A DNA stretch of 64,000 nt, taken from contig OZ250169.1 in NCBI GenBank assembly GCA_965237955.1, positions 3,968,001-4,032,000 on the forward strand. The letters run 5' to 3'. Each line of letters starts with the position of its first letter. The first letter of the stretch is position 1. Source of the DNA: Candidatus Marinacidobacterales bacterium. Its GTDB lineage: Bacteria; Acidobacteriota; Vicinamibacteria; Marinacidobacterales; SMYC01. This document shows positions 18,809-34,175 of this stretch, piece after piece. The position numbers and the translations under genes are program-made. The notes beneath the pieces are model-generated. The model was not told the origin of the DNA. It did no database searches and saw nothing but the letters and a program-made list of their open reading frames with translations.

Positions 18809-19370
18809 ATGGTGTGGGTTGTGCTCGGGCTCGTCATCGTCCTCGGGGGGGCGCTCGTCGTCTTCAACCGTCTCGTTCAGCTGAGGAATCGTGCGGCGGG
18901 GTCGTGGTCGGACATCGACGTCCAGCTCAAGCGACGTCACGATCTGGTGGGAAACCTCGTGGAGGCCGTGAAAGGCTATGCCTATCACGAACGGCAGGTG
19001 CTCGAGAAAGTTGCCGCGGCGCGCTCGAGCGCCGAGGGCGCCCGCACCGAAGGCCATCCCGGCGCCGCGGGAGCAGCCGAGTCGACGCTGTCAGGGGAGA
19101 TGGGAAAGCTCTTCGCGCTCGCGGAAGCTTATCCTGACTTGAAGGCAAGCGAGCAGTTCTCGAGCCTGCAAGCGCGCACTGACGAAAGTCGAGGACGATT
19201 TGCAGAACGCCCGTCGCTACTACAACGCAATCGTGCGCGATCTGAACACGCGCATCCAATCATTCCCGGCTCTCGTCGTCGCCCGCTCACTCGGGTTTCG
19301 GGAACGGGAGTTCTTCTCGCTCGAGGACCGGAGTGAGGCCGCTGCGCCGCGCGTGGAGCTCGGATCGTGA
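18809..19370 (+). pseudogene. lemA: LemA family protein, frameshifted near 19170
   Basis: 'WSDIDVQLKRRHDL', 'AEAYPDLKAS'; 'ARRYYNAIVRDLNTRIQSFP' lies in a shifted frame. Confidence 0.85.
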
Positions 19371-21095
19371 GAGCTCGACTTCTTCTTCTTCTTCTTCTTC
19401 TTCTTCTGCTGCTGCTGCTGGCGTGCGTGCTCGTGGCCGCGCCGCTCGCCGCCGATCGCGGCGGATATCGCATCGCAAGCTTCGACGTCGAGCTCACGGT
19501 GGAGGCGAATGCCGATCTCCTCGTGCAAGAGCGCCTCGTCGTCGACTTCTCGGAAGCTCGACACGGTATCTATCGCACCATCCCCGTTCGCTATACCGAT
19601 CCCCGCGGCTATCTCTACTCACTCGAGTTTCGTCTCCTCGATGTGGTTGACGACAGCGGCGGTGCTCACACGACCCACGTCACCCGCGAGGGGAAATACG
19701 TGAAGATCGGGATTGGGCACCCGAACCGAACCGTCCACGGCCGTGTGGTCTACGTCGTGCGCTATCGGGTTCGAGACGCGGTAGCGCATTTCGCGGAGCA
19801 CGATGAGCTCTACTGGAATGCGACCGGCAACGAGTGGCAGGCTCCGATCGATGCGGCTTCTGCGCGCGTCGAGCTACCGGCGCCCGTTGCTCGAGACGAG
19901 ATCGAGGCGGTCGCTTACACGGGTGCCTTTGGCAGCCGCGAGCAAGAAGCCATCGTCGATTACCCCGAAGAATCCGTTATCACCTACTGGGCATCGAGCT
20001 CTCTCGCTCCGCTCCGGGGGTTGACCATCGTGGCCGCTTGGCCGCACGGAGTCGTCACATTTCCGGGCACCGCCGGAAGAACAACGCGATTTGTCGCCGA
20101 CAACTGGATCGTCCTCGCTCCGCTCTTGGCGCGTCGTTATTGGACGGCAGGCCGCGATCCTCGAGGGCCGGCGTCGGTCGTCGTGCGCTACGAGCCGCCG
20201 CCCGATCTCACCCCCGGTGAAATCGGCGCTCTCGTCGACGAGCGTGTCGATCTCCGAGACCTGACGGCGACGGTCGTCGATCTCGCGATCAAAGGCTATT
20301 TGCGGATCCGCGTGGACCAGAAGGATCGCCTTTTTGGTCTTCTCAAGAAAGACGAGACCTGGTTCGAGCGAAGCGATCGCTCGTGGGACGATCTACGCGA
20401 CTACGAACAGAAAGTGCTCTCGGGAATCTTCGCGAGTGGAAGCCTTGTTTCGACGGATGACCTCGAGGAAAAGTTTCTACAAGCAGATCCAGGGAATACG
20501 AGACGCGCTCTGGGAAGACCTCGCGAACCGTCGCTATGTCGCCGGAAAGCCGAACGCGGTGCGGCGCCTATGGAAGATCCTCGGTGTCGTTGCCGGTGTA
20601 CTCACCGTGGCCATCGGCTACGGGTGGGCGGCCTTTCGAGGCGCTATCTTCCCGCAGGCGCTTGTTCTGCCGATCGTAGCGGGCGTGGTCGTGGCTTTTC
20701 TCTTTCTCGTCTTTTCGCGTGGGATGCCGCGACGTACACGCAAAGGCGTGGAGCTCCGGGCGTGGGCTCTCGGGTTCGAGGAGTTCGTCGATCGTGTCGA
20801 GCGCGAAAACCTCGAGGCTCAACGTCAGAGAAACGTCTTCGAAGCTCTTTTGCCGTACGCCATGGCCCTCGGCGTCGCCGCGGCGTGGGCCCGCCAATTC
20901 GAGGGGATTTACGCGACCGCTCCTCCGGTGTGGTTTCATGGTCATTCGGCATCGACATCCGGATTCTCCACACCGAGGTTCGAGCGCACTTTGAGCACCG
21001 CGATGTCGCGGGCAGGAACCGGCATGACCGCCGCCCCGCGCTCACAAGGCTCGAGTGGCTTCGGTGGCGGCGGCGGAGGTGGTGGCTCCTGGTGA
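19367..21095 (+). pseudogene. DUF2207 membrane protein, frameshifted near 20470
   Basis: 'HGIYRTIP', 'DELYWNATG', 'FEALLPYAMALGV', terminal 'GGGGGGGGSW'. Confidence 0.85.
19379..19420 (+). repeat. (CTT)9(CTG)5 microsatellite encoding 14 Leu
   Basis: Read directly; lies in the signal peptide of the DUF2207 gene. Confidence 0.95.
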
Positions 21096-21279: not shown

Positions 21280-21870
21280 TCAAGCCCGAAGCCGCGACAG
21301 GAGAACGTCGGCGTCCGGTGGTCTCTGTACACGCGCGGTCGCGGACAGAAGATTTTTGGGATCGGCATCGGCCTCGAGAGTGAGCCGCTCGCACCCTTGA
21401 TACAACCTGTCGAGAAACGGGTGCAGCGTTTCCTCCAGCGTGTTCGCGCAAGCGGTCGTGCTCGGAGCGAGAAGACGGTTGCGGATGCGGAACGACACCT
21501 CGTCCACGCGAAACTCGAGAGCGCCTTTCAAGGTTGGCTCCTCTTCGAGAAACCGGCAGGCGGTGAGCGCGGCGCGAAAAGCGGCGCCGAGGCGGGTCAC
21601 CGGGTCGTCGTCGGACGCGCGCTTGCGGGAGTAGACAAGACTCGGACGGCCGTTCTGCCTCAGAGCGTAGTCTGCGGCGTGGCAAACGAGGACGACACCG
21701 GGGCCGTGGCGGACATGCCGGTAGTCCGCGACGTCGATGGGGATCTCGTCTTTCAGGCGGTCCTCTTGAATCCAGCGATGAAATATCGTGACCACGGCGT
21801 CGGGGTCGACGCGGGACGACTCGTCGGCGTAGAACTTCACCGTAATCTGGTGGGCATCGAGTGGTTGCAT
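21280..21870 (-). CDS. Hypothetical protein directly downstream of sulfite reductase
   Basis: 196 aa, 10 bp after the sir stop; 'IFHRWIQ..IDVADYRHVRHGPGVVL'. Confidence 0.7.
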   Translation of the reverse strand: MQPLDAHQITVKFYADESSRVDPDAVVTIFHRWIQEDRLKDEIPIDVADYRHVRHGPGVVLVCHAADYALRQNGRPSLVYSRKRASDDDPVTRLGAAFRAALTACRFLEEEPTLKGALEFRVDEVSFRIRNRLLAPSTTACANTLEETLHPFLDRLYQGCERLTLEADADPKNLLSATARVQRPPDADVLLSRLRA

Positions 21871-21880
21871 GGGCTCCTGG

Positions 21881-24133
21881 CTAGACTTCGGCCATACGCC
21901 CGTAACAGGCGTGCGTGGCTTCGATGAACAGTTGCGCTTCTTCGATGAGGTGATGCGCAGCGTCCGCGCTCACGTCATCGAGAATCTCTTTGTGAGTTCG
22001 GAACAGGTAGTGGGCGAACTTTCCGCCGGCGAAGCGGTCGAAGAAGAGTTTGGTGTCGTAGAACCGGCTTTTGAACTCGTCCACGATCCGCGAGGGGTCG
22101 CCGTTCACGTCCGTACTCTGGGTGTGCACCAGCGCTGCTGCGGCGGACACCATGGCATCGTAGGCGCCCCCGGCGGCGCCTTGGGCATCTCCACGTTCCA
22201 GTTGAAGCTGTGCTTCGAAAACGCGCCTCTCGCTCGCCGCGACCTCGAACGCGAACCGGGAGATGACCTCGCCCGCGCACTCGCCACGACCCATGTCCCC
22301 GATGGTGAACTCGCGCGGGTCACCCCAGTCGGAGTAAAGAGACGAGTCCTCCTCGTAGGCGGGAACATTCATCAAGTCGTCGAGCAGGACACGAACTTTG
22401 TCTTTGCCCATGCTCCGAATCAACGAGGAGAACGTCTGCCCCGACTGCGCCTCTCGCCGGTAGAGATCCGTGAGCCTGGTGACGACCTCGGGGATGCGTT
22501 TCGAGGGCACGGCGCCAATGGCTAAACCGAACGATTTTGCGTTCTCGGTCCATTGCCCGCCGAGCACGACCTGGAAGTGCGGGACCGTTCGTCTGTCGAA
22601 CTGGCGGCTCACGCCATAGAAGCCCACGTCGGCAACATGGTGTTGGCCGCACGAGTTGAAACAGCCACTCACTTTGATGTGAAGGTCTTTCACGGCGGTG
22701 TCGGAGGCCAGGTCCTGCGCCAGGAGGCGGTCTCTGAGCTGGGAGGCGAGGCCGCGCGACGAGGCGATGCCGAGCTTGCAGGTATCGGTTCCAGGGCAAG
22801 CGGTAACGTCCACGATCGTGCCGGCGCCCGGTTGTGCGAGCCCGATGGAATCGAGCGCGGTGAAGAGCTTCGGAAGATGCGCTTCGGCGACGTAGCGAAG
22901 CACGAAGTTCTGTTCCACGGTGGTGCGAAGCGTGTCGCCGCTGGACTTGCCGAACACTCGCGCGACCTCGGCGAGTGCCCTCGCCTGGTGGGCCGAGATG
23001 TCTCCGAGCGGAAGCGTCACCACGGCCACGGCATAGCCCTCTTGGCGCTGCGGACGGACGTTCGTCGCTTTCCATGCGTCGAATGCTGGCGGCACGTCGG
23101 GTGCGTCAACGTCGAGCGTTAACGGCGGCGGCGTCACGAGCTCGCCATCGCCTTCGCTCAGGTACTCCGTCCAGCGAGAATCTCCCGGCAATTTCCTTCT
23201 TTCTTCGAGAACGAGACGCCGGAGCTCGTCGATGCCCAGTTTTTTGACGAGAAACTTCAGCCGGGCCCGCGCGCGGTTTTTCTTCTCACCGAGGCGGGCG
23301 AAAACGCGGCAAATGGCCTGGGCGATCGGAAGGATCTCCTCTTCGGGGAGGAACGGATCGAACAACTTCGCCGGATGCGGAACCGCGCCGAGGCCGCCAC
23401 CAACGTAGAGCTCGAATCCGCGCCGTGTGCGGCCGTCTTCGGTTCGGGTCCGTGCGATGAAACCGAGATCGTGAAACGTGGTGAGCCCGCACGGCTCGTC
23501 CTTGCAGCCGGAAAAAGCAACTTTGAACTTGCGACCAAAGTCCTGGGCATCCGGATGACCCAACAGGAAGTAGGCCATGGCTCTCGCGTAGCGGGTCACG
23601 TCGAACGTTTCACCGCAGCAGACGCCGGCTAGAGGACAGGCGGTCACGTTCCTCACCGAGTTGCCACAGGCTTCGCGGGTGGTGATGCCAACCGCGGCGA
23701 GACGACGCATGACGTCGGGTGTGTCCTCGATGTGGACGTAGTGAAGCTGAAAATCCTGGCGCGTGGTGACGTGGAGCACGCCGGCGGAATACTCTTCGGA
23801 GAGCTCCGCGAGGACGTCGAGCTGATCCGGTGAGACCGACCCGAACGGGATCTTGATGCGTTGCATCCCCGGCGCGTCCCAGAGCGTTTGCAGGCCCTTG
23901 GTGAGCGCCGCCGAAGGGTAGGTGAGTGTGCGCGACTCGTTGCCGTCGTGCCGGTGGCCGTTGTCGTAGCGTTGCCCGTAGACACCTCGGCGAAGGCGGC
24001 TCTCGCCGAAGATCTTCTCGTCGAGCTTTCCCTGCCGGCGAAGCTCGAGCTCGGTCTCGTAGATGTCGATCTCGCGACCGAGATCGGGCGGGATCTGCGC
24101 CCCGAGTTCTTGTTTCCAGGTGAGGATACTCAT
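21881..24133 (-). CDS. Siroheme-[4Fe-4S] nitrite/sulfite reductase with C-terminal extension
   Basis: 'LRRGVYGQR', 'HVTTRQDFQLH', 'TACPGTDTCKLG', 'SGCFNSCGQH'. Confidence 0.9.
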   Translation of the reverse strand: MSILTWKQELGAQIPPDLGREIDIYETELELRRQGKLDEKIFGESRLRRGVYGQRYDNGHRHDGNESRTLTYPSAALTKGLQTLWDAPGMQRIKIPFGSVSPDQLDVLAELSEEYSAGVLHVTTRQDFQLHYVHIEDTPDVMRRLAAVGITTREACGNSVRNVTACPLAGVCCGETFDVTRYARAMAYFLLGHPDAQDFGRKFKVAFSGCKDEPCGLTTFHDLGFIARTRTEDGRTRRGFELYVGGGLGAVPHPAKLFDPFLPEEEILPIAQAICRVFARLGEKKNRARARLKFLVKKLGIDELRRLVLEERRKLPGDSRWTEYLSEGDGELVTPPPLTLDVDAPDVPPAFDAWKATNVRPQRQEGYAVAVVTLPLGDISAHQARALAEVARVFGKSSGDTLRTTVEQNFVLRYVAEAHLPKLFTALDSIGLAQPGAGTIVDVTACPGTDTCKLGIASSRGLASQLRDRLLAQDLASDTAVKDLHIKVSGCFNSCGQHHVADVGFYGVSRQFDRRTVPHFQVVLGGQWTENAKSFGLAIGAVPSKRIPEVVTRLTDLYRREAQSGQTFSSLIRSMGKDKVRVLLDDLMNVPAYEEDSSLYSDWGDPREFTIGDMGRGECAGEVISRFAFEVAASERRVFEAQLQLERGDAQGAAGGAYDAMVSAAAALVHTQSTDVNGDPSRIVDEFKSRFYDTKLFFDRFAGGKFAHYLFRTHKEILDDVSADAAHHLIEEAQLFIEATHACYGRMAEV

Positions 24134-24891
24134 ACAGGAACTCCCTTCGATGAAACTTGGCCTTCCGAGCCTTTGGAGATTGTCGCGCCGAGACTGACGA
24201 CGTCGCCGACGATGATCACGCCCGGCGCTCCAGGGAGAGGAACGGGCGTGCGCGCGAGCGTTGCGATGGTCCCGGTCCAAGTGGCGGTGTCGGGCGACGA
24301 GGCGTTGCAGGTGATAGCGGCTGGGGTCTCTCGGCTCCATCCGCGCTCTATCAAGAACTCCGCGAGCGTCGTGCGAGTCGAAAGACCCATCAGCACGACG
24401 AGGGTCACCGAGTGAGGATCGATCGAGCCGAGGACCGTGCCGAGGGCTTCCGGGCTGTGGCCGGAAAGCACGACGAAAGCCGAAGTGAGGCCGCGGTGGG
24501 TCACCGGCATGCCAGCGAGCGCGGGTGCGGCAAGCGCCGAGCTGATGCCGGGCACGATCTCGTAAGGCACACCGGCTCTCGCCAGAGCGAGCGCCTCTTC
24601 GCCGCCTCGACCGAGAACGAACGGGTCGCCGCCCTTGAGGCGGACGAGACGATCGCCTCCGCGCGCAAATTGGATCATGAGCTCATGAATGGCTTCCTGC
24701 TCGATCCTCCCGCAACCCTTCCGTTTCCCGACGTCGAAGCACTGCGCGTCTCGAGCGAGCTTCAACACTTCGTCCGATACCAGCGCGTCGTACAGGACGA
24801 CGACCGCCTCTTCGAGGCGCTTCACCGCCTTCACTGTCAAAAGCTCGGGGTCGCCGGGTCCCGCACCGACGAGAGAGACTAGACCCGTCAT
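24130..24891 (-). CDS. cobA: Uroporphyrinogen-III C-methyltransferase
   Basis: 'LVGAGPGDPELLT', 'RLKGGDPFVLGRGGEE', 'PGISSA'. Confidence 0.93.
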   Translation of the reverse strand: MTGLVSLVGAGPGDPELLTVKAVKRLEEAVVVLYDALVSDEVLKLARDAQCFDVGKRKGCGRIEQEAIHELMIQFARGGDRLVRLKGGDPFVLGRGGEEALALARAGVPYEIVPGISSALAAPALAGMPVTHRGLTSAFVVLSGHSPEALGTVLGSIDPHSVTLVVLMGLSTRTTLAEFLIERGWSRETPAAITCNASSPDTATWTGTIATLARTPVPLPGAPGVIIVGDVVSLGATISKGSEGQVSSKGVPV

Positions 24892-25457
24892 CCGCGCGCT
24901 GCCTTTTCGTAGAGCTGGTTCACCGCTTGGAGGAGCAGAGGATAGCGGCGCTCCATCGGAACGCCCGCGGCCCGCCACTCGCGACGCTTCTCGACCGCGA
25001 GACTCCTCCATCGATCGAGATCGGCAGGGAGGAGCTCGGCGAGAGCTTCGCGCAATAGTCGCGACAGCGCCGGAGCGGCTCCACCGGTCGAGATACTCAC
25101 GGTGACGCCGGAGCGGCGCACCACGGCACCAGCGTAGGCGCTGCAAGACGCTTTGTCGTCTACGGCGATCACGAACCGCCGCCGTTTCTCCGCGACGTTT
25201 GCGACCAGGTGGTTGATCGCAGGCGTCGCCGCGGCAATCACGAACCAGGCGTTTTTGAGATCGCGAGCGTGGAAGGCGCGCCGATGCAACGTGAGGTTCG
25301 GGTGCGTCCAGGCGAAGCCGATCGACGGCGCGACGACGGTGACGCGGGCCCCCGCGTCCAGAAGACTCTTGGTCTTGGACTCTGCCACGGCGCCGCCGCC
25401 GACCACGACAGCGTCCCGTCCGTCGAGGTCGAGAAAAACCGGAAACAGTGCCGGCAT
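24888..25457 (-). CDS. Precorrin-2 dehydrogenase / sirohydrochlorin ferrochelatase (CysG N-terminal type)
   Basis: 'FPVFLDL', 'VVGGGAVAESK', 'ISTGGAAPALSR'. Confidence 0.88.
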   Translation of the reverse strand: MPALFPVFLDLDGRDAVVVGGGAVAESKTKSLLDAGARVTVVAPSIGFAWTHPNLTLHRRAFHARDLKNAWFVIAAATPAINHLVANVAEKRRRFVIAVDDKASCSAYAGAVVRRSGVTVSISTGGAAPALSRLLREALAELLPADLDRWRSLAVEKRREWRAAGVPMERRYPLLLQAVNQLYEKAARG

Positions 25458-25474
25458 GTTCGTGCTCCTAAAGT

Positions 25475-25511
25475 AAAAAAGGCCCGGCTCCCTTCACAGG
25501 AAGCTGGGCCT
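25475..25511 (-). terminator. Intrinsic terminator (attenuator) just upstream of the cysG-N start
   Basis: AGGCCCAGCTTCC-loop-GGAGCCGGGCCT followed by a T-run, 17 nt before the ATG. Confidence 0.8.
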
Positions 25512-25534
25512 GGATTGCCGCTTGGGCTAACGAT

Positions 25535-25678
25535 CTACATAGCTACCCCGAGGCTCAGGCTCGCCACTTGGCCGCCCGGCCCGTCGGTCCCGTTCCTATC
25601 AACGCGATGCAGCAATTTCTTGAAGCAAGGCCCAGTCCCGCTGGGCCGGATACACTCGCAATAAATGGAAACTGTCAT
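25535..25678 (-). CDS. Cys-containing leader peptide, 47 aa (MTVSIYCECIRPSGTGPCFKK...)
   Basis: Hand-translated sORF between promoter and terminator; 3 Cys. Confidence 0.65.
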   Translation of the reverse strand: MTVSIYCECIRPSGTGPCFKKLLHRVDRNGTDGPGGQVASLSLGVAM

Positions 25679-25704
25679 CGCAAAACTCTCGAATCAGACA
25701 ACCC

Positions 25705-25733
25705 AATATGACAAAAACCATAGGAGTTGTCAA
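25705..25733 (-). promoter_or_regulatory. Sigma70-type promoter
   Basis: TTGACA-17-CATATT with extended TG. Confidence 0.7.
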
Positions 25734-25744
25734 GTTCGAAGGTC

Positions 25745-25773
25745 TTGACAAGCGTGCCGGATTGCGCCATGCT
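25745..25773 (+). promoter_or_regulatory. Sigma70-type promoter
   Basis: TTGACA-17-CATGCT. Confidence 0.65.
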
Positions 25774-25783
25774 GTGTCGAGCG

Positions 25784-25906
25784 ATGAGTTTACTGGCGTG
25801 TACCAACTGCGCATGTAGCGGGCCCGCTCGCACGGGCCAACATGCCACCATGCCAAGATACGCGGGATCGTATCTTGGCCGAGAGGAACTAGCGATTAGC
25901 CGCTAA
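25784..25906 (+). CDS. Cys-containing leader peptide, 40 aa (MSLLACTNCACSGPARTGQ...)
   Basis: Hand-translated sORF about 10 nt after the -10 box; Cys at codons 6, 9 and 11. Confidence 0.68.
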   Translation: MSLLACTNCACSGPARTGQHATMPRYAGSYLGREELAISR

Positions 25907-25934
25907 AGCCCAGGCAATCTCACACGGCGTATTG

Positions 25935-25970
25935 GCCCAGGTCGAAAAAGGACCTGGGCTTTTTGCTTTT
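25935..25970 (+). terminator. Intrinsic terminator (attenuator) upstream of cysH
   Basis: GCCCAGGTC-GAAAAAG-GACCTGGGC then TTTTTGCTTTT. Confidence 0.85.
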
Positions 25971-25985
25971 GTGGCGGAGGTAGAA

Positions 25986-26711
25986 ATGGAAACGGAAACT
26001 CAGTCGGAGCGCCTCGACGAGTTGCACCGAGAGCTGAAGTTACGAGCAACGGTGGAAGTGCTTCGCGTCGTCACGGAACGATTCCGCGACCGAGTGACGA
26101 TGTCCACCGGCTTCGGTGTCTCGGGCTCGGTTCTTCTCGATATCGCCGCGCGCAACGCGATCCCGCTCGACGTCTTCACGCTCGATACCGGACTTTTGTT
26201 CCCCGAGACGTACGCGCTCTGGGAGCAGCTCGAGACCCGGTACGGGATGACGATTCGCGGCGTCCGACCGGCCATGAGTGTCGATGAGCAAGCTCGAAAG
26301 CTCGGCGAGGCGCTCTGGGAGAGAGAGCCGGACGCGTGCTGCCGGCTCCGGAAAGTCGTTCCGCTCGAAGCGGCGCTGAGCGGATTCGATGCGTGGATCA
26401 CGGCGATCCGCCGCGATCAGACCGCGGATCGCGCCGATAGCTCGTGGGCCGAGATCGACGAGCGTTTCGGTGTGGTGAAGGTCAACCCGCTCATCGAATG
26501 GACGTCGGACGACGTCTGGCACTACGTCCGCCGCTACGACGTGCCCTTCAACCCTCTTCACCTGCACGGCTTTCCGAGCATCGGCTGCGGTCCATGCACG
26601 ACGCCAGTCGCTTCGGGCGAGTCGCGCCGCGCCGGTCGATGGCGAGGACGCGGCAAGACCGAGTGCGGGCTCCACGGCCGGCCTCGCTCGGAGACTTCAC
26701 GCGAGAGTTAG
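25986..26711 (+). CDS. cysH: APS/PAPS reductase (Fe-S type)
   Basis: 'LDTGLLFPETY', 'CCRLRKV', 'SIGCGPCT', 'KTECGLH'; GGAGG RBS. Confidence 0.92.
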   Translation: METETQSERLDELHRELKLRATVEVLRVVTERFRDRVTMSTGFGVSGSVLLDIAARNAIPLDVFTLDTGLLFPETYALWEQLETRYGMTIRGVRPAMSVDEQARKLGEALWEREPDACCRLRKVVPLEAALSGFDAWITAIRRDQTADRADSSWAEIDERFGVVKVNPLIEWTSDDVWHYVRRYDVPFNPLHLHGFPSIGCGPCTTPVASGESRRAGRWRGRGKTECGLHGRPRSETSRES

Positions 26712-32566: not shown

Positions 32567-33088
32567 TGCCTTGGTGCACAACTCGCGATCTCGGTCCACA
32601 ATTGTCCTTTACTCACGGATTCGAGGTTCCCCATGAGCATTTTCAAACGCACTCAGCGGAAGTATGTGAAGAAGGCCTATCGCGTGAGGAATTGGCGTGA
32701 ATATGAGGCGGGTCTACGCAACCGTGGGAGCCTGACCGTCTGGATCTCGCTCACCGCCGGCAAGCTTGTGAACTGGGACGCGCCCCGGCCGAGGAGGAGG
32801 AAACCGGGCCGTCAACGCAAGTACTCGAACCACGCCATCGAGACGGCTGTCACCCTGGGCATGGTGTTTCATCTGTCATCTAGGCAGAGCGAGGGATTAC
32901 TGCGATCGTTGTTCGCTCTGATGAAGCTAGACAATGATGTGCCCGATCACACCACGATCTCGAGGCGCAAGGCGAAGCTGGGTAAGGTCCCCTTCTACCA
33001 AGACAAGCAGAAGACGCCGTTGCACATCTTGATCGACAGCAGCGGTCTCGCTGTCCACGCCGGCCAGCTGCGCAGAGCACCAAAGAGC
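32567..33088 (+). mobile_element. IS5-family copy 3, 5' half only
   Basis: TIR at 32567; transposase broken at 'RRAPKS' by copy 4. Confidence 0.92.
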
Positions 33089-34175
33089 TGCCTTGGTGCA
33101 CAACTCCGATAGAGGCCGAGAGCTCGCTTGGCCCCGACTCCCATCATCCGATCATCTCGCTATCAGGCATCCCGAGCGCCGTCATCGTGTTGAGAATCTT
33201 GCACCCGATCCTTGCCCCGACTCTCTGTGCCGCCAACCCTCTCGCTCGCATCGCTGAGCCCACGATAGCCTTGTAGCGATGGAACGTTGTCTCGACTTTG
33301 CTCCGTTTGCTGTAGCCCGATTCTGTGTGCCACTTTCGTTTGCCGAGCCGAGCTTGTGCTGCAATGTTGCGATTGCGCTGTCGGCTGCTCGCCGGCCCCG
33401 ATGCGAGCTGGGCGCCCTTGCGCGGCGGTATCAGCACCCTCGGCGAGCAATGAGCGCTGTGATTCTCGATTGCCTCATAGACGCCGCCGGCGTCGTATGC
33501 GGTGTCAGCTCTGGCAGATGAGATGGGACTGTCGATCTGTCCGACAAGCGATGCAACCCGCGATGAATCGCGGGCTCTTTTGCTCGTCAGCTCGCCGGCG
33601 ACGACTTCGCCACTCTGCTCGTCGACACACAGATGGAGCTTGCGATAGTCCCTGCTCTTTGGTGCTCTGCGCAGCTGGCCGGCGTGGACAGCGAGACCGC
33701 TGCTGTCGATCAAGATGTGCAACGGCGTCTTCTGCTTGTCTTGGTAGAAGGGGACCTTACCCAGCTTCGCCTTGCGCCTCGAGATCGTGGTGTGATCGGG
33801 CACATCATTGTCTAGCTTCATCAGAGCGAACAACGATCGCAGCAATCCCTCGCTCTGCCTAGATGACAGATGAAACACCATGCCCAGGGTGACAGCCGTC
33901 TCGATGGCGTGGTTCGAGTACTTGCGTTGACGGCCCGGTTTCCTCCTCCTCGGCCGGGGCGCGTCCCAGTTCACAAGCTTGCCGGCGGTGAGCGAGATCC
34001 AGACGGTCAGGCTCCCACGGTTGCGTAGACCCGCCTCATATTCACGCCAATTCCTCACGCGATAGGCCTTCTTCACATACTTCCGCTGAGTGCGTTTGAA
34101 AATGCTCATGGGGAACCTCGAATCCGTGAGTAAAGGACAATTGTGGACCGAGATCGCGAGTTGTGCACCAAGGCA
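33089..34175 (-). mobile_element. IS5-family copy 4; transposase 33144-34109
   Basis: 1087 bp with both TIRs; 321-aa ORF. Confidence 0.95.

Follow-up and report, generated by a model that had tools for sequence, protein, structure and literature searches.

The leader upstream of cysH in the 64,000-nucleotide stretch of Candidatus Marinacidobacterales DNA analysed here (the window) is most likely a transcription attenuator of the trp type, in which a ribosome translating a short upstream open reading frame (uORF) would sense charged tRNA-Cys and control transcription of cysH; the assignment is a prediction drawn from sequence comparison and RNA folding models. The ribosome would begin translation almost at the transcript's 5' end. 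At low levels of Cys-tRNA it would stall at the Cys codons, here mainly at Cys11, and cover the 5' arm of a first hairpin (1:2), so that the freed segment 2 would capture the 5' arm of the terminator (2:3) and RNA polymerase would read into cysH. With ample cysteine, the ribosome would pass segment 2 and reach the stop codon, which lies 28 nt before the terminator core; the 1:2 hairpin would then re-form behind it, the terminator hairpin (3:4) would form and transcription would end near position 25965. The leader peptide itself is probably irrelevant.

Results

Architecture of the cysH leader

All of the elements listed in a first-pass annotation of this DNA were found where it had placed them (Table 1). 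In the promoter, the -35 hexamer TTGACA (25745-25750) is separated by a spacer of 17 nt from the -10 hexamer CATGCT (25768-25773). As had been noted from the letters alone, the start codon follows closely, with exactly 10 nt between the -10 box and the ATG at 25784 and no Shine-Dalgarno (SD)-like motif between them. A consensus scanner scored this rightward promoter below its threshold and listed only a leftward one. The Cys codons of the uORF start at 25799, 25808 and 25814, and its TAA stop codon occupies 25904-25906. The Cys peptide described in the first-pass annotation is thus present, but its 12 residues are only the first part of a 40-codon reading frame.

The 1:2 hairpin GGCCCG/CGGGCC does follow Cys11, as proposed, and its 5' arm starts 4 nt beyond the last Cys codon, a gap that is kept in all ten leaders of the closest subfamily. 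The proposed pairing of GGGCCAA with TTGGCCC, which would prevent termination, is borne out as 7 bp between 25834-25840 and 25932-25938, and it is extended by a further 5 bp between 25842-25846 and 25926-25930 that had been overlooked. Perfect pairing was likewise confirmed for the 11-bp hairpin inside the uORF. This hairpin appears to be private to the cysH copy and is not conserved in relatives; it captures the motif CTTGG, which the relatives use in their antiterminator, and a T25875G variant in runs X2, X12 and X14 disrupts one of its pairs. The predicted terminator stem spans 25934-25960 (-20.1 kcal/mol) and is followed by a T-run at 25960-25970, so that by sequence and folding a GC-rich stem with a U-run lies between leader and first gene, as in classical attenuators. 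The fold of the leader exceeds chance expectation, with a z-score of -2.6. About 6 nt downstream of the T-run lies the SD of cysH (GGAGG, 25976-25980).

Table 1. Features of the two divergent leaders and their genes (window coordinates)
Feature	Position	Strand	Basis or remark
Predicted sigma-70-type promoter	25745..25773	+	sequence; transcription start inferred at ~25780-25781
Nearly leaderless 40-codon uORF, Cys codons 6, 9, 11 (TGT, TGC, TGT)	25784..25906	+	sequence, conservation
1:2 hairpin (anti-antiterminator), GGCCCG/CGGGCC, 6 bp	25821..25838	+	sequence, folding
Segment 2, 5' strand of predicted antiterminator (7 bp, 1x1 mismatch, 5 bp)	25834..25846	+	pairs with 25926-25938; folding, flank covariation
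Perfect 11-bp hairpin within uORF	25852..25879	+	sequence
AAAGCCCAGG, overlapping the stop codon; second antiterminator of the first-pass annotation	25905..25914	+	not conserved
3' strand of antiterminator (25926-25938) overlapping predicted intrinsic terminator	25926..25970	+	sequence, folding
cysH, (P)APS reductase	25986..26711	+	NF002537, E=1.4e-75, above cut-off
Paralogous leftward attenuator (predicted)	25470..25733	-	promoter, uORF, 1:2 hairpin, terminator
Operon behind the leftward attenuator	21881..25457	-	NCBIfam/profile matches
Siroheme synthase N-domain	25457-24888	-	
cobA/cysG-C	24888-24130	-	
Sulfite/nitrite-reductase hemoprotein	24133-21881	-	NirA/sir-type models matched below cut-offs

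A paralogous leader and the genes of the pathway

The leftward copy is arranged in the same way. Its promoter (TTGACA-17-CATATT, 25733-25705) is followed by a uORF of 47 codons (25678-25535) with a Cys-x-Cys motif, a 1:2 hairpin (25647-25629) and a terminator at about 25511-25475. Translation of this uORF is predicted to start at a later ATG, preceded by a weak SD-like sequence (GAGAG), since a 4-nt insertion apparently broke the ancestral leaderless ATG. Downstream of the two leaders lie cysH on one side and siroheme synthase and sulfite-reductase-type genes on the other; as in classical attenuators, the controlled genes serve to make the amino acid that would be sensed. In relatives from the same order, cysH, cysG-N and cobA form one operon behind a single leader, with the reductase next; this genome therefore has the operon split into two parts, with a separate leader ahead of each. 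G015, the nearest relative judging from the reductase (95%), retains the left leader. No cysH turned up in G015, whose rightward promoter, with both hexamers mutated, and uORF start have decayed to a remnant at about 1750-1820 of locus L233.

Two genome-wide pattern scans, which also covered cysS, located in this genome, revealed no third Cys leader with a terminator. One of them returned just the two copies, while the first failed to pick up the left copy owing to its longer 5' UTR. The sat gene lies elsewhere (G000:C1:1270494), and neither these scans nor inspection of the sat and cysK-like loci for ORFs revealed a leader there.

Several other features of the window were recorded. A sulfatase fragment (PF00884; 26548-26976, minus strand) overlaps the end of cysH, which has no obvious operon partner. 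Directly after the reductase lies an ORF of 196 aa (21280-21870, minus strand) with no NCBIfam match and no significant Pfam match. Further away we observed two inverted transposase-like ORF copies, one of them truncated (32633-34109), which we take to be IS5-like, and two apparently frameshifted ORFs on the plus strand (18809-21095) that are presumably LemA-like and DUF2207-like.

Conservation of the leader at cysH loci

Among 401 genomes of the class that were searched, 98 carry a close cysH homolog, and the upstream DNA was read for all of these. A uORF with a Cys cluster, in most cases directly behind a TTGAC promoter, is present at 87 of the 98 loci together with a terminator or hairpin of the GCCC type. 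A script that chose the nearest terminator first and then ranked uORFs by promoter match, then by Cys count, found 78 of them; inspection of the remaining 20 loci by hand added 9, among which one stops early and the U-tracts of about five are atypical. At 10 of the 98 loci no leader was found in the upstream DNA that was read (four of these are at contig ends), and one further locus is truncated. Leaders L145, L147, L161, L201 and L212 have an early stop or a weak U-tract, the U-tract being poor in about four of them (L147, L161, L201 and L212), and are possibly degenerate or act differently.

The statistics that follow refer to 79 leaders, namely the 78 found by script and the left copy. The uORFs are 23-53 aa long, contain 2-7 Cys in the cluster and are conserved at the peptide level only there; conservation follows the reading frame, with synonymous TGT/TGC variation. 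Cys accounts for 12.9% of leader codons, compared with 0.67% across 969 long ORFs from the genome analysed here, and codon usage is inverted (TGT:TGC 238:99 in leaders versus 1311:3288 in the genome); the last Cys codon is TGT in 74/79. An SD-like motif precedes the uORF start in only one of the 79. A TTGAC motif is present in 72 leaders, and in 60 of these it is placed 34-41 nt upstream of the leader start. Many members of the class have runs of Cys and a gap of 5-7 nt after the -10 box. The distance from the uORF stop to the terminator core is 25-52 nt, and never less.

Beyond the class-level search, 80 cysH loci from titled records were examined by script output and manual reading, and in 15 of them the strand that carries cysH also has a leader resembling these. 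Twelve come from records whose title names Acidobacteriota or one of its classes or orders, one is untitled, one is Neomarinimicrobiota and one Eremiobacteraeota; no convincing leader was seen in the Myxococcota and Bacillota rows of this set. Judged by their N-termini, the first genes behind the leaders in titled records resemble cysH, cysD, sulfite reductase, cysG or cobA. The Cys leaders noted at L078, L103 and L041-L051, which come from Neomarinimicrobiota, from Eremiobacteraeota and from further classes within the phylum, have different terminator sequences, and L050 has two tandem terminators.

Covariation and folding of the predicted antiterminator

We compared the two strands of the 2:3 helix at the three positions flanking the GGGCC/GGCCC core. 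Across the 10 leaders of the closest type, 21 of 30 flank positions form Watson-Crick pairs against 11.5 after permutation (p=0.0002, with a permutation that ignores relatedness), and three to four pair types occur at each of the first two flank positions. RNAalifold applied to 8 relatives predicts an interrupted antiterminator of 21 bp that reaches across the stop codon. Both partners have changed at 2 flank pairs, and the covariation term is small (-0.16); most of the other antiterminator pairs are invariant and for this reason uninformative. The predicted antiterminator, which would exclude the terminator, is in this way backed by covariation, as expected of a classical attenuator. Over all 79 leaders, native segment pairs average -20.4 kcal/mol versus -17.9 kcal/mol for swapped ones; the native pair ranks in the best tenth of its row in only 17/79, and when segment 2 is shuffled for comparison, the native 2:3 duplex is better at z<-2 in only 36/79. 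A post-stop motif, AGCC-AAGC-GGCT, considered as a mini-hairpin, was rejected as such: it is the 3' strand of the relatives' long antiterminator.

Folding was then constrained by ribosome position. Scoring whether segment 3 had any partner at all proved uninformative, and other measures took its place. With the ribosome on the last Cys codon, the 1:2 hairpin is removed and 2:3 pairing of 5 bp or more arises in 75/79 leaders; the terminator is weakest with the ribosome at offsets -5 to 0 from that codon in 63/79, and its mean probability is 0.96-1.0 once the ribosome is at least 3 codons beyond. For the cysH copy, a stall at Cys11 shrinks the advantage of the terminator from 6.0 to 1.9 kcal/mol, and only this stall shifts the balance much. 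With RNA up to 25968, P(2:3) is 0.76 under the Cys11 stall versus 0.02 with the ribosome at the stop codon; with RNA up to 25960, it is 0.09 under the stall. In near-full RNA of the same copy the terminator stays ahead even under the Cys11 stall (P 0.69-0.93), and in the left copy it prevails in every equilibrium state. When the RNA reaches only the 5' arm of the terminator, a ribosome at the stop codon permits 2:3 as well in 45/79 leaders, including the cysH copy (P 0.98-0.99). The shift between stall and stop exceeds 1 kcal in only 35/79 leaders and is reversed in 19. These effects run in the expected direction, and across the family the scan of ribosome positions favours control codons placed so that a stall helps the antiterminator; in the cysH copy, switching at equilibrium is partial. 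Equilibrium folding gives no clean switch, and the switch would therefore depend on the order of folding, which attenuators usually need for full switching.

A second pairing at the stop codon

The first-pass annotation had proposed two routes to antitermination. The route through segment 2 and the 5' arm of the terminator is upheld by the conservation, covariation and folding described above. For the other, AAAGCCCAGG is indeed complementary to the 3' arm of the terminator and its U-tract, with 25905-25914 matching 25953-25962 over 10 bp. A working second route would have AAAGCCCAGG pair with the 3' arm, pseudoknotted with 2:3, in place of the lost outer helix, and be masked by a ribosome at the stop codon. 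The complementarity is strong (10-11 bp, -18.6 kcal/mol, p<1/300 by shuffling), the 2:3 duplex of this copy (-14.9) is weaker than those of its eight closest relatives (-15.4 to -25.0), and the logic runs in the right direction, as AAAGCCCAGG sits under the terminating ribosome. We nevertheless consider this reading unlikely. A complement of this type occurs at p<0.05 in only 1/77 leaders, and in nested folding the pairing has P=0.00 in every ribosome state; when imposed, it lies 8 kcal above the terminator under the Cys11 stall. Of its 10 pairs only 7 avoid the U-tract, which would be in the grip of RNA polymerase, and part of the match comes free, given that AAAGCCCAGG looks like a 3-nt-shorter form of the left-paralog motif. 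In close relatives, the homologous post-stop CCAAG pairs with CTTGG of the uORF within one long antiterminator. The lack of conservation, the absence of a nested population and the sequestration of CTTGG in the 11-bp hairpin together suggest that the second pairing is a by-product or a private compensation.

A more elaborate history can be drawn, which we regard as speculative and rather improbable. An ancestral cysH-cysG-cobA-sir operon would have been split with two back-to-back Cys attenuators kept, and the cysH copy would have been rewired into a pseudoknotted double antiterminator: the inserted 11-bp hairpin would have taken a strand from the ancestral long antiterminator, and that strand's former partner, at the stop codon, would have become a new strand directed against the 3' arm, which the terminating ribosome itself would switch off. 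If this were true, the cysH copy would be an attenuator in the midst of an architectural change, in a family of leaderless cysteine attenuators that is widespread and undescribed.

RNA and likely DNA runs over the leaders

Eight of 15 listed sequencing runs were compared, six of RNA and two of unrecorded kind that are likely DNA. RNA contigs over the right leader start at 25788 (X2) and 25793 (X4), from two studies and without loose ends, and those over the left leader end at 25688 (X3 and X6, one study). These ends lie 8-13 nt from the predicted starts, and the likely DNA runs X12 and X14 span the gap, which gives a weak hint of divergent transcription starts. None of the RNA contigs listed covers 25689-25787, a gap that by itself proves nothing. 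Both right-leader RNA contigs extend beyond the terminator, to 25998 and 26054, and so display no 3' end there. RNA runs X1 and X5 have no contig on either leader. In one low-depth RNA contig (depth 4) the right uORF lacks 2 nt, which may be an error, and in run X3 a contig joins the 5' part of the left leader, at 25587, to 935 nt of unrelated sequence.

Alternative readings of the leader

Translational attenuation of the kind described in mycobacteria, in which the Cys uORF would gate access to the SD of cysH rather than termination, has a precedent in leaderless Cys uORFs (accessible text of 10.1101/834739), and the SD does lie close behind the T-run. It is very unlikely to apply here: the mycobacterial arrangement has a sequestered SD and no terminator, whereas in the present family a strong hairpin and T-run are conserved while their distance to cysH varies widely (26 to ~1000 nt, the long cases with other genes between), and the covariation falls on the terminator arm and not on the SD.

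That the uORF encodes a functional Cys-rich peptide, either metal-binding or a RiPP precursor, on a transcript that simply ends at a constitutive terminator is highly improbable. The CxxCxC pattern and the RNA contigs over the leader would fit such a peptide. Against it, the length is variable and conservation is limited to the Cys cluster, frameshifts of the left paralog (mid-ORF, in G015 and in one strain variant) alter the peptide yet keep the same stop, a Pfam search with both leader peptides gave no meaningful match, and no space remains after the terminator for cysH to have a promoter of its own. A metabolite riboswitch (SAM-type) or T-box with an incidental ORF is scarcely plausible, for although such elements govern sulfur genes through terminators in other phyla, an Rfam covariance-model search of the leader returned only unrelated models (best E=1.9), no T-box motif was found in it, and its conservation tracks the reading frame.

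Discussion

Ribosome-controlled attenuation at the cysH leader would place it beside trpL of Escherichia coli and hisL, leuL, thrL and pheL, the classical leader-peptide transcription attenuators. Shared with these are a uORF rich in codons for the end product, the set of 1:2, 2:3 and 3:4 helices and an intrinsic terminator before a biosynthetic operon. In contrast to them, the cysH leader family would, judging from sequence, sense Cys and starts nearly leaderless without an SD; its uORF also continues far beyond segment 2, ending 25-52 nt ahead of the terminator, and the antiterminator spans the stop codon. The classical mechanism is summarised in the legend to Figure 1 of 10.1101/834739.

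Related Cys-containing leaders have been described elsewhere, and the comparisons below follow the accessible parts of those sources. One is uORFC-8-2 before cysS in Rhodobacterales, for which a tandem-Cys uORF and an intrinsic terminator were predicted and stalling was proposed to allow read-through (PMC8632094); compared by description, this prediction and ours concern different phyla and targets, the former an aminoacyl-tRNA synthetase. In the polycysteine leaderless sORF attenuators of mycobacteria, which act translationally, a stalled ribosome unmasks the SD (10.1101/834739; cited again in PMC13236596). They resemble the cysH leader in having a leaderless Cys uORF ahead of cysteine-pathway genes and ribosome stalling as the sensor. 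They differ from it in that here a conserved intrinsic terminator would be the target, and in that the Cys codons of the present subfamily are spaced (CxC). The mycobacterial uORFs start with RUG at +1 and carry consecutive Cys codons; the right copy has a predicted leader of 3-4 nt, and runs of Cys do occur in many other members of the class. Actinobacterial leaders with Cys runs before cys/cbs operons likewise resemble the cysH leader in having such a uORF before cysteine genes; no terminator hairpins were found for them and Rho dependence was weakly proposed (PMC1262725, accessible text).

As far as its accessible text goes, the 2020 preprint 10.1101/834739 states that attenuation by a cysteine uORF was previously undescribed. 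In the literature searched, a Cys attenuator was unreported for sulfate-assimilation genes or for Acidobacteriota; the motif tables of PMC8632094 or PMC2965389 could list such leaders. Going by the accessible portions of these sources, what is likely new is textbook attenuation on the sulfate-assimilation pathway, the translational form having been known before and the terminator form having been predicted for cysS only. Control of sulfate assimilation is usually ascribed to transcription factors, S-box riboswitches or T-boxes. If the prediction is true, classical attenuation would be extended to sulfur: in records titled Acidobacteriota it would act ahead of genes for sulfite reductase and siroheme as well as cysH and cysD. 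The predicted attenuator would constitute a small switch that can be tested with a reporter, and the strong bias towards TGT may tune its sensitivity.
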